A stretch of 64,000 nucleotides of DNA from an uncultured bacterium. GTDB taxonomy: Bacteria; Omnitrophota; Gorgyraeia; Ghiorseimicrobiales; Ghiorseimicrobiaceae. A program made the translations under genes and the position numbers. Below the pieces are notes generated by a model, which saw only the letters and a program-made list of their open reading frames with translations, was not told the origin of the DNA and did not search any database. Each line of letters begins with the position of its first letter. Position 1 is the first letter of the stretch. The stretch lies in NCBI GenBank assembly GCA_913009335.1, contig CAJVXN010000004.1:2349-66348 (forward strand), read 5' to 3'. Positions 1 through 59,417 of the stretch are shown here, in pieces.

Positions 1-615
1 AAATTATCAATAACTTCAACTAAGTCGGATTGAAAACCTTTATCCTTGCCATAAGCCCCTAAACATATACCACATAAAACTACTTCTTTAAACCCAGCTC
101 CAGCAAGACTTCTTGCTTCAGCAATAATCTTTGATAAGTCTCTACTGCGCGACCTTCCTCTAACATAAGGAACCTTACAATAACTACAGAAGTTATCGCA
201 ACCATCTTGAATTTTTAAAAATGCACGGGTGCGCTTACTGAAATTATCAATACCTTCAGGAAAAAACTTCTTAGGTATTATGATATCTACACCATTTATT
301 GCCGCAACAGAAGCTATATCTTTCTGAACCAAACATCCCGTAACTATAATTTTGGCACGGGGGTTTTCCCTATTTATGCTTTTAATAAGCTGGCGGCTTT
401 TACGGTCAGCAATAGAAGTAACAGTGCATGTATTAACCACGCAAACATCCGCAGGCATACCATTATAAAGCTCGGTAAAACCCTTTTGGATAAAGCGATG
501 CCTAATACTCTGAGTATCATATTGATTAACTTTACAACCTAAAGTATAAAATTTAATGGTTCGACTTCGCTCACCATTAATCCTGAGCTGAGTCGAAGGG
601 TTAACTGTTTTCATT
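1..615 (-). CDS. MiaB/RimO/MtaB-family tRNA methylthiotransferase, N-terminal portion. The gene continues past the window start, so the 3' end is cut off.
   Basis: Reverse-strand translation from the ATG at 613-615 reads MKTVNPSTQLRINGERSRTIKFYTLGCKVNQYDTQS...KIQDGCDNFCSYCKVPYVRGRSRSR. This has the UPF0004 N-domain and the radical SAM CxxxCxxC (CDNFCSYC) typical of methylthiotransferases. The frame is open to position 1. Confidence 0.7.
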
Positions 616-641
616 GCATTTTGTATAAATTAACAATTATT

Positions 642-1373
642 TTAGTGTCTGGCACCTAAAATAAATAAACCGCAAGTTATAATTGCAGCAGTATCAACTC
701 TAAGTATATTTTCCCCTAAAGATACCGGTGTACAACCATTTTTAATTGCTAAGTCTATTTCTTCCTGGGTAAAATCCCCTTCCGGCCCGATAAAAATTAA
801 TACACGCTTAAATTTAGTATCCACGATTAAATCCCTAATGTGTATCTTCTGAAGGGAAATATTTGGTATTATAGCCAAATCGCAATCTTCTACATGCTTA
901 ATCGCCTGTCTAAAAGTCAAAACATTGGAGATCCTCAATACATTCGTTCTCCCACATTGCTTTGCACTAGACTTGGCAATTTTGCGCCAGCGAAGCAGAC
1001 GTGACGCTTCCCTGCCTCTTAGATCCACTATAGTCCTTTGTGTCTTTAGTGGAATAAAATTGGTAACACCTAACTCTGTAGCCTTTTCAATAATGTATTC
1101 TATTTTTGCTTTCTTGGGAATAGCACAAGCAAGAATCACTTCTATCCCCGGGTTAGAAACTCTCGATTTAGCATGTTTTATTTTTATGGAAAGGGCCTGC
1201 GGAGTTATCTCGAATATTACCCCCTCATAATCAATATTATTATCACTAAATACACTGATTTTATCCCCTATTTTCAAACGTAAGACATTTTTTATATGGT
1301 GAATTTCGGACTTTTCCTTTATGAAAATCGAATCCTGTTTTATATTTTCCTGCTTGCAATAAAATCTTCTCAT
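642..1373 (-). CDS. rsmE: 16S rRNA (uracil1498-N3)-methyltransferase RsmE
   Basis: 243 aa. PUA-like N-terminus plus an SPOUT C-terminus with the FIGPEGDFTQEEI motif characteristic of the RsmE family. Confidence 0.75.
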   Translation of the reverse strand: MRRFYCKQENIKQDSIFIKEKSEIHHIKNVLRLKIGDKISVFSDNNIDYEGVIFEITPQALSIKIKHAKSRVSNPGIEVILACAIPKKAKIEYIIEKATELGVTNFIPLKTQRTIVDLRGREASRLLRWRKIAKSSAKQCGRTNVLRISNVLTFRQAIKHVEDCDLAIIPNISLQKIHIRDLIVDTKFKRVLIFIGPEGDFTQEEIDLAIKNGCTPVSLGENILRVDTAAIITCGLFILGARH

Positions 1374-2902
1374 CTTTTTATACTTTTCTCATTAAAGACT
1401 TCAGCCGTAAAGGTGTATAATTCAGTATCTTTATCCTTCCAGGCATCTGCCGATAACCCTGCTTTATGCGCACAAAGATTAGAAAGAAATTCCTCACGTG
1501 ACCATCCTGTCTCGTCTGCCACCTGCGGCAAAAACACCCCCGAGGCATACCCGCTCTTTACTATTACACCATGCTTGCCCATAACAATATTTTCTGGATT
1601 AACCTCACGTTGAGGTTTTGATAATACGGATATTTCAATTTCAATATCTTCTAATTCATCCAAAGTTACGGGCTTAAAACGCGGATCGTTAGCTGCCGAT
1701 GCTATGCTCATATCGCGCACTGTCCGGTATAAAGGAATACTCGCAATAATATTACCAATACAACCCCGAAGCTTCCCGGTTTTATGTAAAGTAACAAACG
1801 CTCCTTTCTCCTCCAAAAGATCTTTATCTTCTTCAGAAAAATTCTTTATTTCCCCGCTCTTTAAATACTCTTCAATAGTATGACGGGCAATCTCAAGCAA
1901 TCTTTTTCTTTGCATATTAGTAAGCATATCATCATTCCTTTCCTGCTTCTCAACTTCTATATCGTCATCAATCTTCTCTTCTTTACTCTTAAAAAACACA
2001 GCACTGACATACCCCACAACTCTTGTCTTATCTCCGGATATATCACCTGAATTTGCGTATTTCAATACATCCAGCCTATCGGCCCCTAATTTTTGACTGG
2101 CCATTATTACGCTGGCAACACTCGATATACCGCAAAGAATACCCCCTTCGGATAAATCGCCCTCTTTAAAAAGTAACTCCGCCGATATTTTTTTAAGTAA
2201 GCCTAAAGTATGTTTATCTTTCTTAACCGCCTCATCATAAGACAAATAATGCGACATATCAGAACTAGCAATCAATAAAAACTTATCTTTTTCTTTCAAT
2301 ACATTAAAAATAGCCTCGGCTAGTATTTTTGATGTCTCAAATTTTTGATCTCCAATAGCAATAGGCACAATTGAAACATTCGGAAGTACTTTCTTTAAAA
2401 AAGGTATTTGCATTTCCACAGAATTTTCATTAATAAAAGCTGGAGGATAAAATTTAATCTTTGGATGTTCTCTTATTAATTCCCGCACTAATTCTTTATT
2501 GACATTGAGCAACCCCAAAGGAGTATCAAATGCATCTGCATCATAGACGGATACACCGTCAAAATGTATTTTATGGCTAAAGCCTACAATTAAAACAGTA
2601 TCGATATCCAAATTTTGAATCTGCTTAAAACCATATGCAGCTATTGACCCGGAATAGACAAAACCTGCGTGAGGCTGAATAAAAGCAATGATATCACCCT
2701 CTATCTTTTGATTGGGAACAAAAGATAAAAATCTTTCCAGCATTTGGGATAATTTTTTGCTTGAAGAAGGATACCAACTACCCGATAAATCTGACTGTTT
2801 TATTTCTTTAGCGTATACTAAAGTTATTAATCCAGAATTAGAAATAGCTAAAAATAAAATAAAAAACAATAAAACTAACTTTTTAATTTTACTTACCTGC
2901 AT
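1370..2902 (-). CDS. Fusion protein: MEMO1-like (AmmeMemoRadiSam system protein B) N-terminal domain plus AMMECR1 (system protein A) C-terminal domain, preceded by a hydrophobic signal/anchor segment
   Basis: 510 aa. The N-terminus MQVSKIKKLVLLFFILFLAISNSGLITLVYA is hydrophobic. The Memo-like core carries LSGSWYP and IQPHAGFVYSGSIAAYGF. The C-terminus has the AMMECR1 hallmark GAFVTLHKTGKLRGCIGNI...DPRF. Confidence 0.7.
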   Translation of the reverse strand: MQVSKIKKLVLLFFILFLAISNSGLITLVYAKEIKQSDLSGSWYPSSSKKLSQMLERFLSFVPNQKIEGDIIAFIQPHAGFVYSGSIAAYGFKQIQNLDIDTVLIVGFSHKIHFDGVSVYDADAFDTPLGLLNVNKELVRELIREHPKIKFYPPAFINENSVEMQIPFLKKVLPNVSIVPIAIGDQKFETSKILAEAIFNVLKEKDKFLLIASSDMSHYLSYDEAVKKDKHTLGLLKKISAELLFKEGDLSEGGILCGISSVASVIMASQKLGADRLDVLKYANSGDISGDKTRVVGYVSAVFFKSKEEKIDDDIEVEKQERNDDMLTNMQRKRLLEIARHTIEEYLKSGEIKNFSEEDKDLLEEKGAFVTLHKTGKLRGCIGNIIASIPLYRTVRDMSIASAANDPRFKPVTLDELEDIEIEISVLSKPQREVNPENIVMGKHGVIVKSGYASGVFLPQVADETGWSREEFLSNLCAHKAGLSADAWKDKDTELYTFTAEVFNEKSIKR

Positions 2903-2974
2903 TTTGATTGCCGGAAATAACCGGATGTTCTTGGTTAAAATAACCTACCATAAATTGTTTTATATAATCTGCCT

Positions 2975-3030
2975 ATGGTGGAGCTAGGGGGATTCGAACC
3001 CGCCAACCCGTCGCTCGATACATCTCGCTC
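2975..3030 (-). pseudogene. tRNA 3'-half remnant. It duplicates the T-arm, acceptor 3' strand and CCA of the downstream tRNA-Ala and lacks D and anticodon arms.
   Basis: Positions 2975-3000 (tggtggagctagggggattcgaaccc) are identical to 3190-3215. The upstream part cannot form a D arm or anticodon arm. The T-stem has one C-C mismatch. Confidence 0.35.
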
Positions 3031-3189
3031 CCCATATGGGCTTTGCCCCTCTGGCATTCGGTCGAAATTCCGACCTCACTCTCACCCCTAAACCGTGGGA
3101 AAATTCTTTTCCCACACCCTTTTGGGGTCGGATGTTTTATGCGTTACCAAACAACCTTAGCCTTTCAATTCTACCCTACTCACCAAATT

Positions 3190-3265
3190 TGGTGGAGCTA
3201 GGGGGATTCGAACCCCCGACCCCCTCGTTGCGAACGAGGTGCGCTCCCAACTGCGCTACAGCCCC
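3190..3265 (-). tRNA. tRNA-Ala (anticodon CGC)
   Basis: The reverse complement folds as GGGGCTG / TA / GCGC-AGTTGGGA-GCGC / CCTCG-TTCGCAA-CGAGG / GGGTC / GGGGG-TTCGAAT-CCCCC / TAGCTCC-ACCA. It has the G3:U70 Ala identity pair, anticodon CGC and an encoded CCA. Confidence 0.8.
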
Positions 3266-3373
3266 ATTTATTATAACTGATTTATTTTTAATGGGTTAAA
3301 ACAACTGAGCCTTCCTCTGATTCAGCAATAACTAACTCAACAATCTAACTTATAACTATCTAATAATATAATT

Positions 3374-4318
3374 TTAATTTTGCAATACCGGAAAGCCCTT
3401 ATTAAATTTTCCTATTGGACTCACCCAATAAGTTTTATAGGGGTATCCTGTAGGCCTCCAAGAGCAATTATTCTTACAAAAGCAATCTCTACATTCTTTA
3501 AGCTTCGCTCGCTTATCTTCTCCGGCATCTGGCTCCCATATAAATATCTTCTTATGTAACTCCGGTAAAAGACATAATGGTGTCTTCTCAATATAAACAC
3601 TCATCTTTTTTTTCCTAGAGTATCTAACAGCGCTCTCCAGGCAGGGTTTAACTTTTTCTAAATCAGGTATTAATGCCTTGTTTTTTAAAAGATTACCAGA
3701 AATAGAAAGATTGGAGAATTTTATCATCCTCACCCCAATACTTCTTAATAAAACCACTATTTCCTTTAGATGTTTATAGTTTAATTTAGTTACGACTATG
3801 TTTACCCTGACAGCTATCTTGTTACGCACTATATTACGTAGTCCCATTATAGTCTGGTCAAAGCTACCTTCTGAGTTTGTTATGTAATCATGAATTTTTG
3901 CTGTGTTTCCATAAAGTGAAACCCTTATACTTTCTACGCCAAGTCTGGCTATTTTCTTTACATAGTCATCATAAAAAAACATTCTCCCATTCGTTGCTAT
4001 TGTTGCCGAAAAACCCCGCTCTCTAGTAAATTCAAGTGCTTTCATAAAAAATGGGTGAAGCGTCGGTTCCCCTCCAAAAAAATCAATAGTTGTGCCCTTT
4101 TTCTGTAATTTTATCTTATTCAACATTAAAGATAAAGGCATATGGCTGCTTTTTTTTATCTCCTGGGAAACCATGCATATCTTGCAATTATTATTACACG
4201 CTCCCATCAATCGTAATATATAGTACCTGTTTTTATAAGGCATTGCTGATAATATTATAGACACTAATACGTTAACTATTTTTGCCTGCTTATTAATACG
4301 GTAATGTCCAAGTACCAA
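3374..4318 (-). CDS. Radical SAM enzyme with a Cys-rich C-terminal region, adjacent to the pilin genes. An alternative start at the internal Met (about 4243) would avoid overlap with the pilin.
   Basis: CNNNCKIC (CxxxCxxC) and the GGEPTLHP motif. The C-terminal cysteines are CRDCFCKNNCSWRP. Same strand as the pilin gene and immediately downstream of it. Confidence 0.7.
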   Translation of the reverse strand: MVLGHYRINKQAKIVNVLVSIILSAMPYKNRYYILRLMGACNNNCKICMVSQEIKKSSHMPLSLMLNKIKLQKKGTTIDFFGGEPTLHPFFMKALEFTRERGFSATIATNGRMFFYDDYVKKIARLGVESIRVSLYGNTAKIHDYITNSEGSFDQTIMGLRNIVRNKIAVRVNIVVTKLNYKHLKEIVVLLRSIGVRMIKFSNLSISGNLLKNKALIPDLEKVKPCLESAVRYSRKKKMSVYIEKTPLCLLPELHKKIFIWEPDAGEDKRAKLKECRDCFCKNNCSWRPTGYPYKTYWVSPIGKFNKGFPVLQN

Positions 4319-4703
4319 AGGCTGTCATGCCATTTTCATCCATAATTAAATCTTCACCTGTGTATGCCCCATTCATCCTTGTCGCCGTGATTTCAAACGC
4401 ACTCTCATCATTAGCAGTAGTATCATAATCCCAATCAACATCAGCATCAACCCCGCCTAACTCAACATAACCACCAAGCCCAGCGGGGCTGGCAGCATCC
4501 CAACCACCCATACTTATATCGTGATATTCACTATTATCAGCCCGATACAAATGCTGCGCCCGGCGAATTAAAGTCATATTTGAGATTGCTTTACCTGCCT
4601 TTGCACGCTCAACACTGTTTAGATACTGCGGAATTGCAATACCTGCCAAAACACCAATAATGATAACTACCATAATTAGTTCAAGTAATGTAAAACCTCT
4701 CAT
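4293..4703 (-). CDS. Type IV pilin / GspG-like major pseudopilin
   Basis: Prepilin leader with the class III signal MRGFTLLELIMVVIIIGVLAGIAIPQY. About 60% identical to the paralog at 6617-7027. There are no cysteines, and both paralogs end with GTWTLPY. Confidence 0.8.
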   Translation of the reverse strand: MRGFTLLELIMVVIIIGVLAGIAIPQYLNSVERAKAGKAISNMTLIRRAQHLYRADNSEYHDISMGGWDAASPAGLGGYVELGGVDADVDWDYDTTANDESAFEITATRMNGAYTGEDLIMDENGMTAFGTWTLPY

Positions 4704-4867: not shown

Positions 4868-5509
4868 CTATCGTGCGGATTGGGAAATGGCATGTGCACT
4901 TGTAGTAAGGGTTAATTCAGGATTAGTAGGAGTTATGGAGTCCCCGGGAATAAAACGGGCAGTAATACTAACCTCTGCCCCGCGAGATAGGTCCGCGTCA
5001 AAAGCACTATTAATTGAAGCTAAAGTAAAAGCCTCCACTCTAGTTGAGATTATTTCATTAGCCGCGGTAGTAGCTGGAAAACCTCCCCCAGAACCATAAG
5101 GTAAATAATAAAGAATATTATTATTACCATCTAAACGATAAGCTATCCAATTATCATCCCCATAGTCATTAGCAGTGCCAATATTAGGAACACCGTTAGC
5201 ATCTATATCTAATCTAATGGCAATACGGCTATTGCCTGGTTCTATATCAAGCCCGGAATCACCTCTATCTCCCGTTGCCATATTTATACTTTTTTTTATC
5301 TGTAAAAGAATAGGGCTAATCTCATTTTGTAATTCTGCCTGGCGTTCAGCAACATTCATAAGCTTTCGGGAGGCAATATCAATATTCGCCGAAGTTAAAA
5401 ATATAAGACTTAATAGTGTTATAGCCACCATCAACTCTACAAGAGTAATACCAATTTTCCTACGCAACGAATAACCAATTATGGACATTATCTTCTTTAT
5501 TTTTACCAT
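4868..5509 (-). CDS. Minor pilin / pseudopilin
   Basis: N-terminal RRKIGITLVELMVAITLLSLIF is a prepilin-type cleavage/methylation motif with Glu at +5. Confidence 0.6.
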   Translation of the reverse strand: MVKIKKIMSIIGYSLRRKIGITLVELMVAITLLSLIFLTSANIDIASRKLMNVAERQAELQNEISPILLQIKKSINMATGDRGDSGLDIEPGNSRIAIRLDIDANGVPNIGTANDYGDDNWIAYRLDGNNNILYYLPYGSGGGFPATTAANEIISTRVEAFTLASINSAFDADLSRGAEVSITARFIPGDSITPTNPELTLTTSAHAISQSAR

Positions 5510-5549: not shown

Positions 5550-6053
5550 TTAATTCGGCTCTGTCCATTGAACCTGCATAAATACCCGGCGCGCGGGAAA
5601 AGCAGCACCAGCAGCAGCCGGAACAGGATTACCCGGAGACGAATCATCTTCAACCCAATAACGATATGACTGAGCAATAGCACCAACCGACGGGCCCGCA
5701 ATCCACCCGCCAGGATTCCATGTTCCCCCTGTTGTTCCTAAATTAGCATTGTCGTTAGCTTCAGTCCAGGTATCCTCTCTAACAAATTCTCTTCGGCGTT
5801 CAATCTGATCCTGAGCAAGATTTACCGCGGCCAACCTCCTATTTGCCCTTTGTACAAATCGATTACTCGATATAAAAATGCTAAATAACCCCCCGATAGT
5901 AAGTGACATGATTACCGCAGCAATTACTACCTCGGTTAATGTAAACCCTTTTAGAGCGCTACACCTAAAGCTTGTAATATAAAATCGCCCTGCCTTAACA
6001 CGATACCTGCCAGAAACAAAATATTTAAACAACCATCTGTATTTTTTAGTCAT
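5550..6053 (-). CDS. Minor pilin / pseudopilin. The leader is long, so the true start is uncertain.
   Basis: KGFTLTEVVIAAVIMSLTIGGLF prepilin motif about 34 aa into the ORF. Confidence 0.55.
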   Translation of the reverse strand: MTKKYRWLFKYFVSGRYRVKAGRFYITSFRCSALKGFTLTEVVIAAVIMSLTIGGLFSIFISSNRFVQRANRRLAAVNLAQDQIERRREFVREDTWTEANDNANLGTTGGTWNPGGWIAGPSVGAIAQSYRYWVEDDSSPGNPVPAAAGAAFPARRVFMQVQWTEPN

Positions 6054-6099: not shown

Positions 6100-6498
6100 T
6101 TATGGACAGCTGGCATTGGGGGTTGGGTCAGCAATCGCATCGCTTACCGTATACACACAAGCATCAAACGCCCCTGCCTGCCTACCGGCGACAGCAGTAA
6201 AACTATTAGCCGCAGAAGCTGTAATATTATAATCCCAATTATTCTCTGAAAGGTTTAGACGCAGATTGGTATTAATATCAGCTACATTTCCCTCACCGCC
6301 CGCGCCTGGATAAAAATTACCAAATTCACTCTGATAAACCATCTGGGCAGCACGTAATAGCCTTAAACCCACAACAGCTTCCCTGGTATATGTACGCTCT
6401 TGCGACCTTAAATAACTAGGCATAGCAATACCTACTAATACACCAAGAATTATTACAACAATAACCATCTCAATTAAATGGAACCCGCGTGAATACAT
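6100..6498 (-). CDS. Type IV pilin-like protein
   Basis: MYSRGFHLIEMVIVVIILGVLVGIAMPSY prepilin motif. Confidence 0.65.
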   Translation of the reverse strand: MYSRGFHLIEMVIVVIILGVLVGIAMPSYLRSQERTYTREAVVGLRLLRAAQMVYQSEFGNFYPGAGGEGNVADINTNLRLNLSENNWDYNITASAANSFTAVAGRQAGAFDACVYTVSDAIADPTPNASCP

Positions 6499-6616: not shown

Positions 6617-7027
6617 TTAATACGGAAGCGTCCAGGTACCAAGCCCTGTAATACCATCCTGATCAATAATTAAGTCATCGCCTCCATATGGACCAGCGGT
6701 TCTCGTCGCCGTAACCTCAAGTGTATCTTCATTATTATCAGTAGTATCATAATCCCAATCAAGATCATTATCAACCCCAGTTAACTCAACATACATCCCA
6801 AGCACAGCCTGCCAACCACTAGAGCTATCCGCAGCGCTATATTCATCGCTATCGGCGCGATAGAGATGCTGTGCTTGACGGATCAGCCCTAAATTTGAAA
6901 GGGCTTTTCCTGCTTTTGCACGCTCAACAGCATTTATATACTGAGGAATTGCCAAGCCGGCCAAAACGCCGATAATGATAACTACCATAATCAACTCAAG
7001 TAACGTAAAACCACCTTTTGTTTTCAT
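6617..7027 (-). CDS. Type IV pilin / GspG-like major pseudopilin, paralog of 4293-4703
   Basis: MKTKGGFTLLELIMVVIIIGVLAGLAIPQYINAVERAKAGKA... Cys-free, and the C-terminus GTWTLPY is shared with the paralog. The RBS AAAGGAGGGTGAA lies upstream. Confidence 0.8.
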   Translation of the reverse strand: MKTKGGFTLLELIMVVIIIGVLAGLAIPQYINAVERAKAGKALSNLGLIRQAQHLYRADSDEYSAADSSSGWQAVLGMYVELTGVDNDLDWDYDTTDNNEDTLEVTATRTAGPYGGDDLIIDQDGITGLGTWTLPY

Positions 7028-8503: not shown

Positions 8504-10234
8504 TTAATCACTCGCCGTACTTCCGAGGGCTACACTCATTACCTCTTCTAATGATGTAATCCCTTCAGCTACCTTCTTTATGCCACTCTGATACAATGTC
8601 CCCATATCGTATTTCACAGCTATTTCACTGATCTTACGAACTGAGGCCTTTCTCATAAATGCCTCAAAGAGCTCATCATTCATTGTTAATATCTCAGCGA
8701 TACTCGTACGGCCCTTATACCCAATATTATTACATTTTTCACATCCTTTAGCTCTATAGATTAAATCCGCATCTATCTTAATATCGCCTAATTTTTCAAC
8801 TGTCGGCTCATAGGCCTCTTTACAGTGAGGGCAAAGAACGCGCACTAAACGCTGCGCTATAATCATAATCAAAGACGGGAGCAATAAATATGGCTCAATC
8901 CCGATATCAATAAGTCGTGTCACTGCGGTAGGAGCATCATTTGTATGAAGCGTACTCAAAACCAAATGTCCCGTCAAAGCTGATCTAACGCATATCTGAG
9001 CGGTTTCTAAATCTCTGACCTCTCCAACAAGCATAACATCAGGGTCCTGCCGTAAAAAAGTTTTTAATGCCTCAGCGAATGTTAGCCCTATCTCAGGTTT
9101 GATCTGAACCTGATTTATCCCTTCTATCCTATACTCAACAGGATCCTCTACAGTCATAATATTTTTTGCTGAAGACTTCATCTCATTAAGAGACGAATAT
9201 AACGTTGTAGTTTTACCAGACCCTGTAGGGCCAGTTAAAAAAATCAACCCATACGGACTTTTTATCCCCTTTCTAATCTGCTTTAGTTGCTTATCATCAA
9301 AACCTATAGTAGCCAAATCTAAAGAAATGCTCTCTTTATCTAATATTCTCATAACCAGCTTTTCGCCATATATAGTAGGCATAGTCGAGACACGAATATC
9401 AATAGTGCTATCTTTGATTTTTACAAAAAAAGCCCCTCCCTGAGGTAATCGTTTCTCAGCAATATTCAAATTCGATAAAATCTTAATACGTGAAAGGATT
9501 GGAAGATGCAGATGTTTTGCCGGAGGGGGTATCTCAAAAAGTTTTCCATCAATACGGTAGCGCAAAATTATTCTATCCTTAAACGGTTCAATATGTATAT
9601 CTGATGCCCTCTCTTCGATAGCTTGCCCGATAATTAAATCTACTAGTTTCACTACAGGTGCTTCCTCGGCTTTTTCAATAAGCTTATCCAGACTTAAACC
9701 CTCTTCTGCTTCTTCCATTTCCCTGGACGAGGCTGAAAAACTCTTCTCGATTTGATATGACTCCCTAACTGCGGCTTTAAGCAGATCTGCCTTACTATAA
9801 AATTGCTCAATTGCTTCATTAATATCAGCTTTAGTAGCAATAACCGGATTAATTTCGCAACCCGTCATCTTTCGTAAATTATCTAACAGAATTAAATCAA
9901 ACGGATCGGATATGGCACAAGTAAGAGAATTCAAATTACGCGCTAGAGGAAGAACGCAATACTTAAAAGCATACTCCTTAACAATCAACTCTTCTAAGCT
10001 CTGATCGATAGCTGGTTTCAAATGGCCAGTCCCTAAGCTCACATAAGGAATAGATAATTGTTTACCTAAAGCGGCAATCATACTTTGCTCGCTAATAAAA
10101 CCCTGTTCAATTAAAATTTCACCCAGCCTGCCTCCTTTTTCTGATTGCATAGCCAGGGCACTATTTAATTGATCTTCAGTAATCAAACCATCTCTTATTA
10201 AAATTTCACCTAGCCTTAGATAATTACGCGCCAT
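8504..10234 (-). CDS. pilB: Type IV pilus assembly ATPase PilB (GspE family)
   Basis: Tandem T2SSE_N domains (LGEILI...LITE and LGEILIEQGFISEQ), Walker A GPTGSGKTTT, and the tetracysteine CPHC...CEKC zinc motif. Confidence 0.9.
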   Translation of the reverse strand: MARNYLRLGEILIRDGLITEDQLNSALAMQSEKGGRLGEILIEQGFISEQSMIAALGKQLSIPYVSLGTGHLKPAIDQSLEELIVKEYAFKYCVLPLARNLNSLTCAISDPFDLILLDNLRKMTGCEINPVIATKADINEAIEQFYSKADLLKAAVRESYQIEKSFSASSREMEEAEEGLSLDKLIEKAEEAPVVKLVDLIIGQAIEERASDIHIEPFKDRIILRYRIDGKLFEIPPPAKHLHLPILSRIKILSNLNIAEKRLPQGGAFFVKIKDSTIDIRVSTMPTIYGEKLVMRILDKESISLDLATIGFDDKQLKQIRKGIKSPYGLIFLTGPTGSGKTTTLYSSLNEMKSSAKNIMTVEDPVEYRIEGINQVQIKPEIGLTFAEALKTFLRQDPDVMLVGEVRDLETAQICVRSALTGHLVLSTLHTNDAPTAVTRLIDIGIEPYLLLPSLIMIIAQRLVRVLCPHCKEAYEPTVEKLGDIKIDADLIYRAKGCEKCNNIGYKGRTSIAEILTMNDELFEAFMRKASVRKISEIAVKYDMGTLYQSGIKKVAEGITSLEEVMSVALGSTASD

Positions 10235-23407: not shown

Positions 23408-24277
23408 CTACTTGATACCTTTTACTTCAACGGATGTATGTCCATACTGCTGATACCTGTTAGTTTTAACCTTTACATCGCAAGGATTACAATGACCAAA
23501 ATTTGAACAGTCTCTAAATTTATTTTCGATTTGAAAATCCGGACTTAAAATATGCCCTATCGGATTTAATCTTTCATAAATATCGGCATGACAGCGAAAA
23601 ACACTCCCCTCACTATCTATCAAAAATTCCGTTGTCTTACATTGTACTTTCTTTCTGAATTTTTTATCACAGACGCCACTATACCTATAGGTTCCATATA
23701 ATTTCTTTTTATATTCGCCAAGAAACTCTTTCATGCGAAAATCTATTCCCTCTTTGCGTGCCTTACTTTGCGCCTCAGACATTATTTTTTCATATCCGGG
23801 TCGCATTACCCCCCATATACCAATACTGAAATTTGCCTTTAATAATTTTGAAGTTTTATGAATAGTTTCGTCTAAATCCATTTGCTCGGGATGGTAACTT
23901 ACGCGAATAGAAGCATAAGGAGCATCCCGCCTTAGTCTCTCAGGGTCAACCTTACTTTTAAATTCATCAATATCGAATCGTAAATTAGTTAATATTTCAA
24001 TATACAAATCTGGTTTTATATTATTTATTATGTATATGAAATCAGGATGTAAGCTAGGCTCTCCGCCTTGAAGAGTTATCGGTAAATCCTCTCGAGAAAT
24101 AATACGATTTAGACCACGGACCCAATCTTTTCCGGAGATATTCTTTCTTTTTATAATACCCTGCTCAAAGTGATTAATACAATAATGACATTTAAGATTA
24201 CAGGCAAAAGTTAAAAATACGCCAATATAATTATAATCCTCTGGAACTTGGACAGGTTTAGTAATATTGGTTTCCAT
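23408..24277 (-). CDS. Radical SAM enzyme with a Cys-rich (SPASM/twitch-like) C-terminal region
   Basis: CNLKCHYC plus LQGGEPSLHP. Seven C-terminal cysteines including CSNFGHCNPC. Confidence 0.75.
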   Translation of the reverse strand: METNITKPVQVPEDYNYIGVFLTFACNLKCHYCINHFEQGIIKRKNISGKDWVRGLNRIISREDLPITLQGGEPSLHPDFIYIINNIKPDLYIEILTNLRFDIDEFKSKVDPERLRRDAPYASIRVSYHPEQMDLDETIHKTSKLLKANFSIGIWGVMRPGYEKIMSEAQSKARKEGIDFRMKEFLGEYKKKLYGTYRYSGVCDKKFRKKVQCKTTEFLIDSEGSVFRCHADIYERLNPIGHILSPDFQIENKFRDCSNFGHCNPCDVKVKTNRYQQYGHTSVEVKGIK

Positions 24278-24299
24278 TTTTATTGAACCTCATTAGAAA

Positions 24300-24839
24300 T
24301 TAATTAAGCTCTGTTTTTTTATTTAAAAGCCGCCGCTTGAAAAATGCTAGAATCTTTGCCATCCATAATACTATAGATCCATAAATAAAATATTTATTGT
24401 CTTTCAAAATTACCTGATTGGTTTCAATAAGCCTCACAAATCTGCGATTAATTATTTCTTCTGCGCTATAGCGCTTTAAGATTTCATCTAAGGAAAGGCC
24501 CTCTCTGGCCTCGAATAGCTCGCGAACAATCCTTATTCTGCGGGCCGTCTCCCCTAAATTTATAAAGTGAAAATAGCAATACCCTAGCGCAGCATATGTC
24601 AAAAGATTTATCAAGATATCGGCAATAAAATCTTTAAGCAAACCGGAATATGCTGAAAAAATATAAAATTCTAAGGCAAATAAACTAATAACTCCCGCAA
24701 AAAAACCTAAGAATATAGAATTTAATAAGCCTATCTTCGGCAGGCATCGGGAAGTTCCAACCTGCAACAATATGTTTACTAGCAAGCTGACCATCAGAAA
24801 GATAATATTTAAATAATCAGGGTTCATTAGCAACCTCAA
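24300..24839 (-). CDS. Hypothetical membrane protein, paralog of 24836-25363
   Basis: Four predicted TM segments. The soluble C-terminal tail is similar to that of the upstream paralog. Confidence 0.4.
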   Translation of the reverse strand: MRLLMNPDYLNIIFLMVSLLVNILLQVGTSRCLPKIGLLNSIFLGFFAGVISLFALEFYIFSAYSGLLKDFIADILINLLTYAALGYCYFHFINLGETARRIRIVRELFEAREGLSLDEILKRYSAEEIINRRFVRLIETNQVILKDNKYFIYGSIVLWMAKILAFFKRRLLNKKTELN

Positions 24840-25363
24840 CCGCCCTTAGGAGCATTTAGCAATTTGCGATAAAATATAAATATATTTGCCAACAAAACTC
24901 CTTTAGGAGTTATTCGATATATCCCCTTATCGAGAAAAAGCATTTTATCGCGAAGTAGATCATCAATCCGCGGCCTTACTAGAAAATCATTCGTCATAAT
25001 CTTCTCTATTTTCTCTTTGGTCAAACCGGATGAGGCGGCTTTAGAAATATACAAAACTATCAGTAGTGACGGACTATCTACTTCTATGGCCGAATATGAA
25101 ACAATATAAGCTAGGACTAATGCGCCATAGGAGAAAGAAATAAGCAAATATTCAGAAAATCCCTGAGGCAAACTAAGACCTAGAAATGATACGGAAGAAT
25201 ATATTCTAGAGAAAAAAATACCGGCTATTAGAACACCAAAAAATATTTTTAGTAATCCTATAGTATGATTTTTTTTAGGCAAAGATACTCGCCAAATAAT
25301 AAAGTGAATTATAAACGCTAAAATAAATAGAAAAATGACATAAACTAGTTTATTCATAAACAA
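24836..25363 (-). CDS. Hypothetical membrane protein, a tandem paralog
   Basis: The C-terminus FLVRPRIDDLLRDKMLFLDKGIYRITPKGVLLANIFIFYRKLL aligns with VRLIETNQVILKDNKYFIYGSIVLWMAKILAFFKRRLL of the neighbor. The two genes overlap by 4 bp. Confidence 0.4.
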   Translation of the reverse strand: MFMNKLVYVIFLFILAFIIHFIIWRVSLPKKNHTIGLLKIFFGVLIAGIFFSRIYSSVSFLGLSLPQGFSEYLLISFSYGALVLAYIVSYSAIEVDSPSLLIVLYISKAASSGLTKEKIEKIMTNDFLVRPRIDDLLRDKMLFLDKGIYRITPKGVLLANIFIFYRKLLNAPKGG

Positions 25364-25394
25364 AAATACTATTGGCTATAGATTACTAAATATG

Positions 25395-26498
25395 TTAGAT
25401 AAAATTCTTATGTAAAACCTGTTTGTCTTTTGGCATCGTAAAGCTTGCGCCGCTAGACTTCAAATCCCATAAAAATTCATTTACTTTATGCTGGAGGCAT
25501 AGCGTGCCGCACATAATCTGTGCATTAAATTTATCAGAAGCAATAAAATTCAAAACATCCCAATAGCGCTCATCCTGCCATATTTCCTTAAAAGATTTTT
25601 CTGCGATATTACCTATATGATATTTTTTATATTTACTGTTAAATAACATTCCGCAAGGTGCGACCAACCCCGAACCGGAAAACTGCATAATAAAGGCAGG
25701 GGCATAACATTGTTTGTATTTACGCTTCCCTCCGCTTAAAATCTTAGACCACTTAACCGCAACTTTATATTCGTGCGTTGAATATTTCTCTGCCTCTTTT
25801 AAAATATCTATACATGACTGGTATTTTAAATAATCCACTCTCAGGCTTCCAACTTCATCATCACTGCAATGTTTAAAAATAAGATAATCTACTCCTAGAT
25901 CTTTACCGAGTTTTGCCAGGGGGATAACCTGATCACTAAAACGGGGGAGAAAAACCATCTGTAGCCCTATAGTAACCCCCAGCAACTTATCCTTTTTAAT
26001 GTTGACACACTGACGAATAATTTTCACTACCCTCTCAAAGCATTTATCATCGGTCCCGTGTATATCAGCATATCTTTTTGCACCTGCCGCCGAAATATTA
26101 AATCGTATATAGGTTAAAACGGATAATATCTCTTCAAGCCTATCTTCCTTTAATAAATACCCATTAGTTCCAACAGCCATATCTAGGCCATTGGCCTTGC
26201 CCCTCAAAACAGCATCGTAAAAATAAGGAGAACAGGTGCTTTCTCCGTCACTAACAAAACTTACTCCTTTAACGCCTATATCGGCTGCGTCATCTAAAAA
26301 CCTAAATATCACATCTTTAGTTATCTTCTTTTCATCGTTTGCCTGTAAGGCACCATAGCAATAAACGCATCTATAGGTACACCTACGGGTTAAAGCGCAA
26401 TCAATAGTAATAGGCGCTATTTTTTTTCCTTCTAGCCATGCCTTAAGGCGCTCCTCATGGTAAGCCAACTTTTGCCCATCGAGAACTAATTCTTTCAT
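25395..26498 (-). CDS. Radical SAM/SPASM-domain enzyme, paralog of 29350-30420
   Basis: CTYRCVYC cluster. C-terminal SPASM-like region with GNIAEKSFKEIW and CGTLC. The N-terminus aligns with the 29350 protein. Confidence 0.75.
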   Translation of the reverse strand: MKELVLDGQKLAYHEERLKAWLEGKKIAPITIDCALTRRCTYRCVYCYGALQANDEKKITKDVIFRFLDDAADIGVKGVSFVSDGESTCSPYFYDAVLRGKANGLDMAVGTNGYLLKEDRLEEILSVLTYIRFNISAAGAKRYADIHGTDDKCFERVVKIIRQCVNIKKDKLLGVTIGLQMVFLPRFSDQVIPLAKLGKDLGVDYLIFKHCSDDEVGSLRVDYLKYQSCIDILKEAEKYSTHEYKVAVKWSKILSGGKRKYKQCYAPAFIMQFSGSGLVAPCGMLFNSKYKKYHIGNIAEKSFKEIWQDERYWDVLNFIASDKFNAQIMCGTLCLQHKVNEFLWDLKSSGASFTMPKDKQVLHKNFI

Positions 26499-26523
26499 CT
26501 GAAATTATTTTTATTGAATAAAT

Positions 26524-27303
26524 CTATGCATTATTTCTTCTGGTTTGCGTTAGTGAATCACGGCTAAATCGTCTTTTACCGTTTTTATTTTTATGAAAAT
26601 AAAAATCTTTGACCAATCGTAAATACCCCCTTACAACCTGGTATAGAGAAGGAAAACTAACAGCTTTAGATACTCCCTCTTTTCTTAAACCCAGCTTATA
26701 GGGAACCTCGGCAAAAAGATAACCTTTTTTTACCGATCTTATCAAAATATCCGTCTGGAAAAAGAAACCATTACTTCTATAATCCAAATCATCTAAAATA
26801 GACTTACGATACAGAACCGTCCCGTTAGTATAGTTAAAATTAACCAGAAATGTCGTATTAATAATGAAACGGTATACAAACGAAAGCATGTTCCTAAAAA
26901 GAAGTCTTGTCTCTCTATTAAATATAAAAGGAATAACAATATCTACATGTTCCAATAAATTATAATAGCGGAAAATTTCCCGGGGATCATTTTCATTATC
27001 TCCGGGCAGCATAACAACAATATCTCCTGTTGCGCCCGCAACTCCATCCCAGAAAGAAGCGCCAATACCTAACGGTTTATCATGCCGGATAATAGAAACT
27101 TTTCCTGGGTTTTCGTTTATTTTTTGCTCAATCAAAATTCGAGTATTATCCGAACTACCATCATCTACTACAATAAGCTCCCCTGCTATATTAAAAGTAT
27201 TAAAATCTTTCAATACATCGTTGATTGCATTGGATATATTTGATTCTTCATTAAGCGCTGGCATAATAACGCTTAATTTATTTTCATCCATCTTCTTATT
27301 CAT
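26524..27303 (-). CDS. GT2 glycosyltransferase, Dpm1/ArnC-like polyprenyl-phosphate sugar synthase type
   Basis: LSVIMPALNEESNIS and VVDDGSSDNT GT-A/DxD architecture. No TM tail. Confidence 0.75.
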   Translation of the reverse strand: MNKKMDENKLSVIMPALNEESNISNAINDVLKDFNTFNIAGELIVVDDGSSDNTRILIEQKINENPGKVSIIRHDKPLGIGASFWDGVAGATGDIVVMLPGDNENDPREIFRYYNLLEHVDIVIPFIFNRETRLLFRNMLSFVYRFIINTTFLVNFNYTNGTVLYRKSILDDLDYRSNGFFFQTDILIRSVKKGYLFAEVPYKLGLRKEGVSKAVSFPSLYQVVRGYLRLVKDFYFHKNKNGKRRFSRDSLTQTRRNNA

Positions 27304-28337
27304 AAAATTCGCTTAACTGCCTTAATAATATCTTCTGAATCCAGATAAAATTCTTTTTCTAAAACAGGACTACTGGGAGTAGGCGTGTCAGCAAGACTAA
27401 TTACCTGGACATCTGATTTTAAATAAGGCCTTAATTTATTATGCATGCGCCCCAGAAGTATCTCGCCTATACCGCCACTAGCCCAACCTAAATCAGCAAA
27501 AACAAGCCTCCCTGTTTTCTTAACAGATTCAATAACAATTTCTTCGTCAAAAGGATTAAGTGATCTGGGATCAATAATTTCTATATCTATATCTTCCCGT
27601 TTTAATTTTTCCGCAGCCTTCATCGCTTCCTGTACCATTAATGATACGGCAACTATTGTTACATCTTTACCGGCCTTACGAATAAAACCTTTTCCAATAG
27701 GTATAAGATATTCTTTGGCAGGGACATAATCTTTAATATCATAAAGCCACCTATGCTCGATAAAAATAACGGGATTATTATCGGCTATACTTGCAAGTAA
27801 TAATCCTTTTGCATCATAAGCGCTTGACGGCATAACTACTTTAATTCCCGGCATATGCAAAAACAATGCATGTAGAGCCTGAGAATGCTGCGCTGAAGAA
27901 CCCCAGCCTCTACCGATAATGGAACGTATAACCATAGGGACAGCTACCCTACCGGAAGACATATAACATATTTTTGCTGCATGATTAAGTATCTGATCAA
28001 ATGAAAGAAGCATGAAATCCATTCGCATGTGTACTAAAATAGGCCTCATTCCACAAACTGCTGCTCCGACGCAAAAGCCGGTTAATCCGTTCTCTGATAT
28101 CGGTGTATCCATTACCCTACCGGGAAAATCCTTATGCAAATTAAGTGTTGATCCAAAAACACCTCCGGGATCATCAACACCTTCACCCATCAGGAAAACA
28201 CGGGGATCTCTCTTAAAAGCCTGAAAAGAGGCCTCTCTTAAGGCCTGTCTAAATTCAAGCGTCCTTTTATTCTTATCTAGAGAAGGAAAGGCTAAATTTT
28301 TAACGGCATTATCAACCGCTACTTTTGTCCAGGGCAT
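27300..28337 (-). CDS. Thiamine-diphosphate-dependent 2-oxoacid dehydrogenase E1 component, beta subunit (transketolase-like Pyr and C-terminal domains)
   Basis: 345 aa. E1-beta fold (FLMGEGVDDPGGVFGST...). Overlaps the alpha subunit gene. Confidence 0.8.
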   Translation of the reverse strand: MPWTKVAVDNAVKNLAFPSLDKNKRTLEFRQALREASFQAFKRDPRVFLMGEGVDDPGGVFGSTLNLHKDFPGRVMDTPISENGLTGFCVGAAVCGMRPILVHMRMDFMLLSFDQILNHAAKICYMSSGRVAVPMVIRSIIGRGWGSSAQHSQALHALFLHMPGIKVVMPSSAYDAKGLLLASIADNNPVIFIEHRWLYDIKDYVPAKEYLIPIGKGFIRKAGKDVTIVAVSLMVQEAMKAAEKLKREDIDIEIIDPRSLNPFDEEIVIESVKKTGRLVFADLGWASGGIGEILLGRMHNKLRPYLKSDVQVISLADTPTPSSPVLEKEFYLDSEDIIKAVKRIL

Positions 28338-29320
28338 GAGCTTTCTGTGTAATAAACGTTAGAATAAAGATCCTTACTATTAGGAAAATCGCTATTTTTT
28401 GCAAATCTTACAGCACTATCTATTTCTTCCTCAATCTTAGAACGAATTATATTTAATTTTTCTCTTGTTGCTATTTTATTTTTTAAAATATAATTCTCTA
28501 TTCTCTTGACAGGACATCGCTTCATCCAAGACTCAAGCTCAACGAGCGGACGGCATCCTTTATCAAAATCACAATCCGGTCCTACATGAGCTTTCCAGCG
28601 ATAGGTTCTACATTCAAGAATAAACGGCCCTGAGCCATGACGTATTTTTTTAATTAGTTTAGATGCTTTATCTATCATACTAATTGCATCGTTACCATCA
28701 CAACGTACACCCTTTATCCCGAATGCCTCTCCTCTCTTGTAAATGTTATCTAAAGGCTGCCTTGCCGAGAGCGGAGAATTTGTGGCATAAAAATTATTCT
28801 CGCAGACAAACAAAATAGGTAGTTTTTTTAGGGCGGCAAAGTTTAGGCTCTCATAAAAAACACCCTGCTCTACAGCACCGTCTCCGAAAAAAACAACCGC
28901 GATATTTTTGGTTTTTTTAAGTTTTAAACTTAAAGCAGCTCCTGTTGCCAACGGTATCCCCCCGCCGACAATAGCAGACGTAGCAAAGATCCCGCGCTCA
29001 GGACTTACCAGATGCATAGACCCACCCTTACCACTGCAACAACCTGTATCTTTACCATAAAGCTCCGCCATTATTGATTGAAGCTCTAATCCTTTAGCGA
29101 TACAATGCCCATGAGACCGATGATTACTAAAAACAATGTCTTCTTTTTTTAAATAATAGCAAACACTACTTGCTATTGCTTCCTGACCGATACACAGATG
29201 AACCGGCGTCTTAATCTCCTGCTCAGGATAGAGCATGACAATCCTCTCTTCAAAGAGGCGTATCTTCTGCATTATAAAATAGACATTTAGTAAATCGCTA
29301 TTTTTAATTTTTCCTGCCAC
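28319..29320 (-). CDS. Thiamine-diphosphate-dependent 2-oxoacid dehydrogenase E1 component, alpha subunit
   Basis: 333 aa. TPP-binding motif GDGAVEQGVFYESLNFAALKKLPILFVCENNFYA. Confidence 0.8.
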   Translation of the reverse strand: MAGKIKNSDLLNVYFIMQKIRLFEERIVMLYPEQEIKTPVHLCIGQEAIASSVCYYLKKEDIVFSNHRSHGHCIAKGLELQSIMAELYGKDTGCCSGKGGSMHLVSPERGIFATSAIVGGGIPLATGAALSLKLKKTKNIAVVFFGDGAVEQGVFYESLNFAALKKLPILFVCENNFYATNSPLSARQPLDNIYKRGEAFGIKGVRCDGNDAISMIDKASKLIKKIRHGSGPFILECRTYRWKAHVGPDCDFDKGCRPLVELESWMKRCPVKRIENYILKNKIATREKLNIIRSKIEEEIDSAVRFAKNSDFPNSKDLYSNVYYTESSCPGQK

Positions 29321-29349
29321 GAAAAACTCCTTAGAACTTAACGGCTATA

Positions 29350-30420
29350 TTATATAAAATTAACATGCGCTCCCGGATTTTTTAATTCCCAGAGGTAACT
29401 ATTGATCTTATCCAAGCGGCAGACATCTCTGCAACGAGAAGTATCTAATTTTAAAGCTGCTACTCTTATAATTTCTCTTCTTCGTCTACCCCCGATTATA
29501 TTATTAAAATCAGTTCGATAAATATTACCGGAGCAAAATTCTTTTTTCCCTAAAAAAGTACTACAGGCATAGACATCCCCGCAAGCACTAATATATGCCC
29601 AAAACGGCAGACCGAGACAATGCTTATAATCTTTATCACTATCCAATCTTTGCATTGTCTGAGATCTAAAAATAATCCTAAATTTATCACTCTGAATTTT
29701 ATTTAATTTAGCACTCATAACAGAATAATTCTTATATTCCAAAACAGGTTTAATATGTGTAATGCTTAAAGGGTGCTGCGAATATGGCTTGATTGTTAAA
29801 TAATCTACTCCGATATCTTTTAGTAATTTCGCTAATATAAAAACTTCCTTGATATTTTCCTTAAGAAGTAATAATTGTACGCCTATTGTAACGGCTAGCT
29901 TATATCTATTTTTAATTTTTACCGCAGCTTCTAAATTCTGCAATACTTCGCTAAAGTCATTTTTTCCGGTATTGTGAATCTTCGAATAAGTGCTACTGCG
30001 CCCCGCATTCAAACTTACCCTAACCCAACTTAAAGACTTTAATATTTCTTTAGATAGATCACGTTTTAACAAGACACCGTTAGTAGTAACTGCGACGTCG
30101 ATTCCGCACCCTTTTGTATAACTGATAATTTTAGCAATATCTTTATGCAATAGAGGCTCGCCTTCCCCGGCGTACATAATACTCTTAACGCCTAAGATAC
30201 CAGCTTGCTTAACCGCAGACTTTAATACTTTTTCCTCTAAAAATTTGGGTTTATAGTCCAAATAGTCAAGCGCGCAAAATATGCATCTATGGTTGCAAGT
30301 TCCCGAAGGAGCAATCTCCAAATATATCGGGCAAATTATTTTTCCCTTCAACCAATCACTTACTCTATCTACATGCAGCATTAACTTATGACTATCTATT
30401 CTAAAATTATTCTTCATCAC
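29350..30420 (-). CDS. Radical SAM/SPASM-domain enzyme, paralog of 25395-26498
   Basis: CNHRCIFC cluster, YAGEGEPLL, and a C-terminal SPASM-like CSGNIYRTDFNNI...CRDVCRLDKINSYLWEL. Confidence 0.75.
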   Translation of the reverse strand: MMKNNFRIDSHKLMLHVDRVSDWLKGKIICPIYLEIAPSGTCNHRCIFCALDYLDYKPKFLEEKVLKSAVKQAGILGVKSIMYAGEGEPLLHKDIAKIISYTKGCGIDVAVTTNGVLLKRDLSKEILKSLSWVRVSLNAGRSSTYSKIHNTGKNDFSEVLQNLEAAVKIKNRYKLAVTIGVQLLLLKENIKEVFILAKLLKDIGVDYLTIKPYSQHPLSITHIKPVLEYKNYSVMSAKLNKIQSDKFRIIFRSQTMQRLDSDKDYKHCLGLPFWAYISACGDVYACSTFLGKKEFCSGNIYRTDFNNIIGGRRRREIIRVAALKLDTSRCRDVCRLDKINSYLWELKNPGAHVNFI

Positions 30421-31358: not shown

Positions 31359-31400
31359 GCCTCACCTCGATTCTAAAAATACTACCTCGCATAAACCCGA

Positions 31401-35587: not shown

Positions 35588-35589
35588 GG

Positions 35590-59235: not shown

Positions 59236-59417
59236 TGGGATACCCAACCAGAATGCAAGCAATAAAAAGAGGCCGTAATCAACAATGGTTTGTAAATTTT
59301 CCCGCGGCTATCGCGCGAGCGATGAATTTTACAAAGTCTGAAGTAGTAGAATGGGAAATTATAGATAAAAGCTCTCTTAAGTTGAAAAGAATAGCTAAAA
59401 GGAGGGCGCGAAGATGA
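59236..59417 (+). CDS. AbrB/SpoVT/MazE-fold small DNA-binding protein encoded inside the IS
   Basis: MGYPTRMQAIKRGRNQQWFVNFPAAIARAMNFTKSEVVEWEIID is a swapped-hairpin-barrel-like pattern. RBS GGAGG lies upstream. Its stop overlaps the transposase ATG (ATGA). A 12 bp perfect palindrome (CTATGTATAGTA-ataa-TACTATACATAG) lies just upstream. Confidence 0.5.

Follow-up and report, generated by a model that had tools for sequence, protein, structure and literature searches.

Conserved all the way from archaea to humans, AMMECR1 and MEMO1 both have links to human disease, and these two proteins, like the prokaryotic three-gene system to which their relatives belong, are biochemically uncharacterised. 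Eukaryotes possess MEMO1 and AMMECR1 and are not known to have the radical S-adenosylmethionine (SAM) enzyme (rSAM) of that system. The system, AmmeMemoRadiSam, is described by the models TIGR04335 (protein A), TIGR04336 (protein B) and TIGR04337 (the rSAM). Here we examine a gene for a fused Memo-AMMECR1 protein, together with its surroundings, in a 64-kb stretch of contig CAJVXN010000004.1 (hereafter the window) from an Omnitrophota metagenome-assembled genome (MAG), whose closest named relatives are Candidatus Omnitrophota MAGs.

Balaji & Aravind 2007 (PMC2034487) first drew attention to fusions of AMMECR1 with a dioxygenase-type domain and to their rSAM neighbourhood, and proposed a cytosolic role in RNA-base modification. 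NCBI annotation already names such fusions AmmeMemoRadiSam protein B, and no functional study of the system was found in the searchable literature, where the six papers that mention it by name do so outside title and abstract. Set beside this described system, the fusion in the window fits both the A and the B models and has the RGCIG and DxRF motifs and the His/Asp/Cys site intact, and sister genomes have the same fusion in an operon with TIGR04337. It differs in three respects: the window lacks TIGR04337, the protein carries a predicted signal peptide, and the cassettes of Omnitrophota add a DsbD_2-like protein. Taking all the evidence together, we consider it likely that the window encodes a Sec-exported Memo-AMMECR1 enzyme in solo form, that the rSAM gene located nearby at 3374-4243 is an unrelated insertion, and that the adjacency of a pilin operon is inherited gene order.

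A conserved Memo-AMMECR1 fusion

The gene and its parts are as follows.

1370-2902, minus strand: gene for the 510-aa Memo-AMMECR1 fusion, AmmeMemoRadiSam protein B/A (Pfam, NCBIfam, AlphaFold2 model, Foldseek)
2810-2902, minus strand: putative signal peptide, residues 1-31, from sequence reading and conservation, with a predicted signal peptidase I site VYA/KE
1994-2797, minus strand: Memo (LigB-type) domain, residues ~36-303, with H78, H110, D215, H218 and C257 invariant
1382-1903, minus strand: AMMECR1 domain, residues ~334-507, with the RGCIG motif (C381) and the DPRF motif (D406, R408, F409)

An original prediction, made from the letters of the window, had read the 510-aa open reading frame (ORF) as a Memo/AMMECR1 (AmmeMemoRadiSam B/A) fusion, and profile searches bore this out, with every score above its cut-off. 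The Pfam Memo domain (PF01875) matched residues 39-302 with 207.3 bits (cut-off 27) and AMMECR1 (PF01871) residues 336-503 with 188.5 bits; TIGR04336 scored 248.6 bits (cut-off 26) over profile positions 3-270 of 270, and TIGR04335 184.2 bits (cut-off 99). No second copy of Memo or AMMECR1 was found in the 64-kb window, and an exact search of the contig index did not return the fusion protein. The AlphaFold2 model of the protein, with a mean predicted local distance difference test score of 89.7, consists of two compact domains, an N-terminal helix at residues 3-22 and segments of low confidence at 23-33 and 309-323.

Both domains have the same folds as solved structures. In Foldseek comparisons the Memo domain aligned with human MEMO1 (PDB 3BCZ, 7L5C, 7KQ8) at template-modelling (TM) scores of 0.80-0.83 and a sequence E-value of 1e-17, and the AMMECR1 domain with archaeal AMMECR1 (PDB 1VAJ, 1ZQ7, 1WSC; PH0010) at 0.77-0.78 and 1e-37. 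Those are separate proteins devoid of a leader (the matches begin at chain residues 5-13), whereas the protein of the window is fused and has a predicted export signal. Across 22 homologues H78, H110, D215, H218 and C257 of the Memo domain, which we take to correspond to the metal ligands of MEMO1, are unchanged, as are R379-G-C381-I-G and D406-P-R408-F409 of the AMMECR1 domain. The RGChG and DxR-aromatic motifs of AMMECR1 were defined in PMC2034487. We conclude that the fusion is orthologous to the B/A fusion proteins found in AmmeMemoRadiSam cassettes. Its predicted architecture comprises a signal peptide, a Memo/LigB-type metal-site domain, a disordered linker and an AMMECR1 domain with a catalytic-looking cysteine.

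A leader conserved in pattern

The N-terminus reads MQVSKIKK-LVLLFFILFLAISNSGLITLV-YA/KEIKQSDLSGSWYP, where the slash marks the predicted cleavage site. It starts with the n-region MQVSKIKK (K5, K7, K8) and continues with the h-region LVLLFFILFLAISNSGLITLV at residues 9-29, then VYA/KE (V29-Y-A31/K32). The charged n-region, the uncharged h-region and the small residues at -3/-1 are those expected of a Sec (type I) signal peptide, taken here as an h-region of 10-20 uncharged hydrophobic residues and small -3/-1 residues directly ahead of the mature domain.

Among the 120 best homologues (46-100% identity, 455-546 aa, all Memo plus AMMECR1), 111 have an uncharged hydrophobic run with a median of 16 residues. 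Lys or Arg lies ahead of the run in 106 of these 111, the run terminates in Ala in 69, and in 72 it stops 8-9 residues ahead of the Gly of a conserved GxWY motif. The nine homologues without the run resemble truncated gene calls, e.g. MSSDCFAQQIKKP. A genome-wide scan, for which 80 fusion loci were fetched at one genome per species, gave the leader in 69 of 74 assessable fusions; the bearers belong to Omnitrophota, Cloacimonadota, Bacteroidota, Ignavibacteria, Aminicenantes, Acidobacteriota, Thermodesulfovibrionales, WOR-3, Zixibacteria and others. Within 80 further metagenome loci anchored on TIGR04337, 26 of the 29 fusions near TIGR04337 genes have it too. Lipobox-like Cys variants occur in loci L033 (...LTTGC/AEQ), L038 (...TLLSC/QQ) and L061 (...LLVSC/AN). 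Because the pattern persists while the sequence drifts, the leader behaves as a signal peptide, and the hydrophobic N-terminus that the original prediction had pointed out is best read as a genuine conserved one.

That prediction had also allowed for an annotation artefact, in which the protein would be cytosolic and translation would begin at an internal codon, the Met of MLERFLS (Met54). No Shine-Dalgarno sequence is obvious ahead of ATG 2902, as such an artefact would have it, but a start at Met54 is excluded because the Pfam Memo match begins at residue 39 and K35, G41, Y44 and L51 are invariant in the 22 homologues: it would cut off residues 33-53 and so truncate the Memo domain. Moreover, there is no further ATG between residues 1 and 39, the physico-chemical pattern of the leader is kept in more than 100 orthologues despite sequence drift, and lipoprotein-type variants exist in other phyla. 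We regard a mis-called start as extremely unlikely. The same crude signal rule flags 14 of the 59 ORFs of the window, most of which encode pilins, the secretin or membrane proteins, and for that reason we strongly infer, rather than demonstrate, that the fusion is exported by Sec.

Cassette and solo forms of the locus

The rSAM genes that adjoin fusions in other genomes match TIGR04337 in 29 of 30 cases. These neighbours score 371-378 bits (L009: 377.6; cut-off 220) and also match the activases PflA, NrdG and YjjW. In Omnitrophota the order is (type IV pilus operon), tRNA-Ala(CGC), TIGR04337 rSAM, fusion with predicted signal peptide, a gene of ~215 aa, rsmE and an mtaB-like gene, and tRNA-Ala lies upstream on the same strand in 25 related loci. 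By sequence, the ~215-aa product would be a multi-pass (six-helix), CcdA-like membrane protein; it has GPCxxSCGP and LPCxPL motifs and matches Pfam DsbD_2 (PF13386) with 59-79 bits, with weaker similarity to DsbD_TM and LysE. These DsbD_2-like genes were located at L009 4226-4837, L013 6441-7091, L017 11571-12224, L029 6625-7272 and in 12 further loci, and none was detected near fusions in other phyla. The Omnitrophota counts given below take in some MAGs labelled 'uncultured Planctomycetia', because their clustering and gene order are shared with named Omnitrophota loci.

rSAM present, DsbD_2-like gene present: 16 Omnitrophota-type loci
rSAM present, DsbD_2-like gene absent: 0 loci
rSAM absent, DsbD_2-like gene present: 0 loci
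rSAM absent, DsbD_2-like gene absent: ~20 loci, including the window (best DsbD_2 score 7.7 bits)

The window is thus of the solo form, neither accessory gene being present at the locus or anywhere in the 64 kb. A profile search for TIGR04337 of the six-frame translation and the ORFs of the window gave nothing above 17 bits, so that of the three genes of the AmmeMemoRadiSam system TIGR04337 is the one lacking within the 64 kb. The other ORFs with a CX3CX2C motif (23408-24277, 25395-26498, 29350-30420 and 35590-37050) do not have TIGR04337 among their 25 best NCBIfam matches. They are four further radical SAM genes on the minus strand (23408-37050; 289, 367, 356 and 486 aa), none of which attains any curated NCBIfam cut-off; the 486-aa product is a B12-binding, BchE/HpnJ-like protein. 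A neighbour-joining tree (no support values) places the fusion of the window inside a large subclade of mostly solo fusions.

The absence of both genes from the window leaves room for a complete system, whose TIGR04337 rSAM gene (and probably the DsbD_2-like gene too) would lie at another site of the genome, its product continuing to serve the exported fusion. Consistent with this, TIGR04337 is often detached from Memo/AMMECR1 in metagenome contigs with full 6-kb flanks, the rSAM of L016 lies 2.7 kb away on the opposite strand, and solo-type fusions retain every residue conserved in cassette-type fusions. However, neither gene is in the 64-kb window, and both would have had to relocate, in several lineages; long solo-type contigs (1.55 Mb, 1.43 Mb, 307 kb and 218 kb) are not among the 120 best matches to an Omnitrophota TIGR04337 query, which is weak evidence. 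We consider a complete but dispersed system a credible explanation, although on balance a somewhat improbable one, and prefer to read the locus as solo.

In L015 (8894-11443) a single ORF of 849 aa joins TIGR04337, Memo and AMMECR1 and has no signal peptide. It differs by one 118-nt in-frame deletion from L167, whose fusion has a normal leader, and could represent either genuine variation or faulty assembly. Because of this single deletion, the triple fusion was given little weight as Rosetta-stone evidence for a cytosolic complex.

A neighbouring radical SAM gene of another class

The window has a G+C content of 37%, and its minus strand holds nearly all genes from 1 to 58 kb. Two adjoining ORFs of 227 and 211 aa on the plus strand (59414-60855), which resemble a split transposase, are its only sizeable plus-strand ORFs and break this uniform array. 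In the direction of transcription, the fusion gene is flanked by the following features.

8504-10234, minus strand: PilB ATPase, by similarity to the T2SSE genes of L083 and L084
7179-8465, minus strand: PilC, by similarity to the T2SSF genes of L083 and L084
4868-7027, minus strand: four prepilin-type genes (6617-7027, 6100-6498, 5550-6053 and 4868-5509)
4293-4703, minus strand: extra (fifth) pilin gene, a 69%-identical paralogue of pilin 6617-7027
3374-4243, minus strand: HxsC-like radical SAM gene, 289 aa from ATG 4243, in an ORF open back to 4318
3270-3299, minus strand: promoter-like TTAACC-18-TATAAT, located 5 nt ahead of the tRNA and recognised by consensus alone (the regional total of such sites is not above shuffled expectation)
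3190-3265, minus strand: tRNA-Ala(CGC), conserved ahead of the cassette among Omnitrophota
2976-3189, minus strand: 214-nt unit that follows the tRNA, ahead of the fusion gene, with a copy of the tRNA 3' end (T-arm, acceptor stem and CCA) as its last part (2976-3033)
642-1373, minus strand: rsmE (16S rRNA U1498 methyltransferase), downstream of the fusion, its start overlapping the fusion stop codon by 4 nt
3-629, minus strand: MiaB/MtaB-like methylthiotransferase, N-terminal part (UPF0004 plus radical SAM), truncated at the edge of the window; relatives likewise have this gene after rsmE

The spacer from tRNA-Ala(CGC) to the fusion ORF is 287 nt, and the fusion-rsmE junction is kept in relatives. 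The fusion, rsmE and the mtaB-like gene probably form one transcription unit starting at tRNA-Ala.

The original prediction had proposed the ORF at 3374-4318 as the rSAM partner of the fusion. This ORF is indeed a radical SAM protein (PF04055, 67.8 bits; CNNNCKIC motif). Its TTG start overlaps the preceding pilin gene, and the true start is likely either GTG 4264, which matches the 296-aa call of NCBI, or ATG 4243, the latter because a 78% identical homologue begins MPHKDKYY. The best NCBIfam match is HxsC (TIGR03977), with 133.6 bits over profile positions 28-286 of 292 and below the cut-off of 267.9; SPASM/twitch-type maturases come next, the top of the list being HxsC, HxsC4, a tungsten-cofactor maturase, ScmF and BlsE. 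Cytosylglucuronate decarboxylase BlsE is also the closest solved relative. TIGR04337 is not among the 25 best NCBIfam matches (the 25th has 42 bits), and on a profile built from 29 verified TIGR04337 neighbours the protein scores 17 bits, against 545-617 bits for true members. The original prediction had itself named failure to match that family as grounds for giving up the partnership, which we therefore abandon. The C-terminus of the protein is rich in Cys (CRDCFCKNNC), which suggests that it may bind an auxiliary cluster.

Only two close homologues of this rSAM, at 100% and 78% identity, exist in 5.8 billion proteins. The identical one has the same pilin-rSAM arrangement in a second assembly (GCA_011051015.1), and the 78% homologue stands in another genome after rsmE-mtaB and is itself followed by a gene for a secreted non-pilin protein. 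Distant homologues (27-37% identity) are in multi-rSAM clusters with HxsD, and pairing with pilins was not seen among the 78% or distant homologues. In L083 and L084, whose fusions are 62-63% identical to ours, the order is PilM, PilO, secretin, PilB, PilC, four pilins, tRNA-Ala and fusion, and both the fifth pilin and the rSAM are absent between the pilins and the tRNA. Likewise, the solo-type loci of relatives have no rSAM at the corresponding position. Since L083 and L084 lack both genes and the fifth pilin duplicates the first at 69% identity, we conclude that the pilin copy and the HxsC-like rSAM make up a two-gene insertion, specific to this lineage, that lies where the pilin operon ends and ahead of the tRNA.

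Resemblance to HxsC lies in the best NCBIfam match, extending over nearly the whole profile, and in the clustering of distant homologues with HxsD. Unlike HxsC, the rSAM of the window stays below the cut-off, has no HxsA, HxsB or HxsD genes beside it and is paired with a duplicated pilin. Separately, full His-Xaa-Ser systems, with HxsD and close to distant homologues of this rSAM, were seen downstream of rsmE-mtaB in L083 (17169-17474), L084 (17247-17543) and L170 (6946-9978). Their precursor peptides end in runs of HGS/HAS repeats, and the L170 cluster includes a protein weakly similar to prepilin peptidase (Peptidase_A24).

Non-orthologous displacement, with this rSAM replacing TIGR04337 as functional partner of the fusion, could be argued from its position: it is on the same strand, less than 500 nt and one tRNA away from the fusion, roughly in the slot between pilins and fusion that TIGR04337 holds in sister genomes, and the window has no TIGR04337 gene. 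Yet the two enzymes are of different classes (HxsC/SPASM-type vs. activase-type), and the rSAM of the window lies upstream of the tRNA and the promoter-like site, while TIGR04337 is always downstream of the tRNA. Its 78% homologue is located elsewhere, two close homologues stand against thousands of fusions, other solo-type loci have no rSAM there, and the gene arrived together with a pilin duplicate. Displacement is, in our judgement, very unlikely, and we keep to the reading of an unrelated insertion.

The pilin operon upstream

The pilin genes belong to a recognisable type IV pilus operon, with prepilin motifs, PilB and PilC. All five pilin ORFs match PF07963, two of the five above the 21.2-bit cut-off, and GspG and PilA N-terminal matches were obtained as well; the orthologous operons in L083 and L084 have the Pfam domains T2SSE, T2SSF, Secretin, PilM and PilO. 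The original prediction had tied the three-component system to this surface-filament locus, and we surveyed related loci accordingly. Of the 26 Omnitrophota loci that offer 2.5 kb or more of upstream sequence, 10 have pilins there, as do the shorter-flank loci L007, L023 and L036 and the window. Pilin-positive loci are of both cassette and solo types, genuine TIGR04337-fusion cassettes lie downstream of pilins in eight loci, and in every case a tRNA gene stands between pilins and cassette. In other phyla pilins are upstream in 1-2 of 36 loci, which is the chance level, and in the relative L082, with a fusion 96% identical, the genes upstream are NfeD/Band7 and tRNA-Ala(GGC), with no pilins. 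The proposed link therefore holds as conserved gene order within Omnitrophota and does not extend to other phyla or even to every close relative.

A functional version of the link would make the type IV pilins, or the machinery of the pilus, a target of the exported Memo-AMMECR1 enzyme of Omnitrophota, with or without partners. In those loci where the pilin operon is directly upstream, tRNA-Ala alone lies between; the loci span cassette and solo lineages with fusions just 40-50% identical, and both sets of products would be extracytoplasmic. On the other hand, the adjacency is absent in 34-35 of the 36 loci of other phyla and missing in 16 of the 26 Omnitrophota loci as well as in the 96%-identical relative, and a tRNA gene with its own promoter-like site splits the two units. 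The genes downstream, rsmE and mtaB, are equally conserved in position and are housekeeping genes, which suggests plain conserved order. We find a pilin substrate quite unlikely; the simplest reading is that the adjacency is gene order inherited within the phylum, not an operon.

A tRNA-like unit ahead of the fusion gene

In the last part of the 214-nt unit (2976-3033), the T-arm, acceptor stem and CCA of the tRNA recur as a second copy (GGAGCGAGATGTATCGAGCGACGGGTTGGCGGGTTCGAATCCCCCTAGCTCCACCA). It is kept in L083 (~9740-9925) and L084 (~9642-9860), and in each genome the tRNA-like copy matches that genome's own tRNA. In L086 (4288-4622; second assembly of the organism) the unit occurs in tandem, with a different internal hairpin; Tandem Repeats Finder reported nothing on L086, though a unit of ~214 nt is visibly repeated. 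The unit folds better than shuffled sequence (z = -3.7), and the break in gene order and similarity with L082 falls exactly at the 3' end of the tRNA-like repeat. A transfer-messenger RNA (tmRNA) was rejected, as Rfam scores were sub-threshold (tmRNA 14.8 bits, permuted tmRNA 19 bits), ARAGORN found none and an mRNA-like domain is absent; a phage attachment site was rejected as well, there being no exact matches in viral contigs. The unit could be a tRNA-integration scar, a small non-autonomous element or a processed RNA.

Discussion

How might an exported Memo-AMMECR1 protein work? The mature enzyme would use its metal site and thiol in the periplasm, on a substrate located there or in the envelope. 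Where the TIGR04337 rSAM is present, it would have to act in the cytoplasm ahead of export, because it needs SAM, iron-sulfur clusters and a reductant and bears no export signal; its target may be the unfolded precursor or a small molecule. The DsbD_2-like protein might then serve to carry either reducing equivalents or the substrate through the membrane. For the genome of the window, the functions of the rSAM and the DsbD_2-like protein would be dispensable, much as for MEMO1 and AMMECR1 of eukaryotes, or encoded elsewhere.

A precedent for such a division of labour is the anaerobic sulfatase-maturating enzyme (anSME), which acts on Sec-exported sulfatases as unfolded precursors. By analogy, both cases would have a cytoplasmic rSAM that is genetically coupled to a protein with a Sec signal and acts before export, but anSME is of the SPASM type, whereas TIGR04337 is related to glycyl-radical activases. 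The CcdA/DsbD thiol-disulfide transporters provide the second parallel, since the cassette gene of the sister genomes matches PF13386 and has two conserved Cys motifs. It differs in that the cassette gene is not in the window, and weak similarity to LysE/ArsG permeases leaves a transporter role possible.

Several points weigh against this picture. Export is deduced from a sequence pattern and its conservation, and the leader may be an uncleaved signal anchor instead of a cleaved peptide, although the domains would face outward either way. A cytoplasmic rSAM with an exported partner is a mechanism proposed by analogy. No residues conserved only in cassette-type fusions were found, and therefore no site is marked for modification by the rSAM. 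Many TIGR04337 genes in metagenomes lack a Memo or AMMECR1 neighbour over a distance of 6 kb, and in the genome of the window TIGR04337 and DsbD_2 genes may be encoded elsewhere. DsbD_2, finally, belongs to the LysE transporter clan (with weak ArsG and LysE matches) and may be a permease rather than a thiol shuttle.

Extending the proposal beyond the window, we tentatively suggest that the fused B/A form is extracytoplasmic in many phyla, that the rSAM matures the precursor or makes the substrate before export, that in Omnitrophota the DsbD_2-like protein completes a cross-membrane module and that some lineages, that of the window among them, do without the partners; taken as a whole, this generalisation is still rather doubtful. 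In the searchable literature we did not find a description of general export signals on the fused form, of the strict pairing of rSAM and DsbD_2 in Omnitrophota, of partner-less lineages, or of the Omnitrophota gene order with pilus operon and tRNA-Ala.

The leader observation applies more widely than the original prediction had supposed, and a caution follows for similar loci, in that a radical SAM gene beside Memo/AMMECR1 need not be the rSAM of the system. Any account of these proteins is now constrained in three ways: most fused bacterial versions bear predicted export signals yet share operons with an rSAM that has to be cytoplasmic, the rSAM gene of one phylum never occurs at these loci without the gene of a DsbD_2-like membrane protein, or the latter without the former, and whole lineages retain the apparently exported enzyme alone. 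With a conserved signal peptide, the RNA-base-modification role proposed in 2007 (PMC2034487) does not fit, at least in the exported clade. If the generalisation above is true, that proposal would fail in the case of this clade, with the cell envelope as the place where the system acts.

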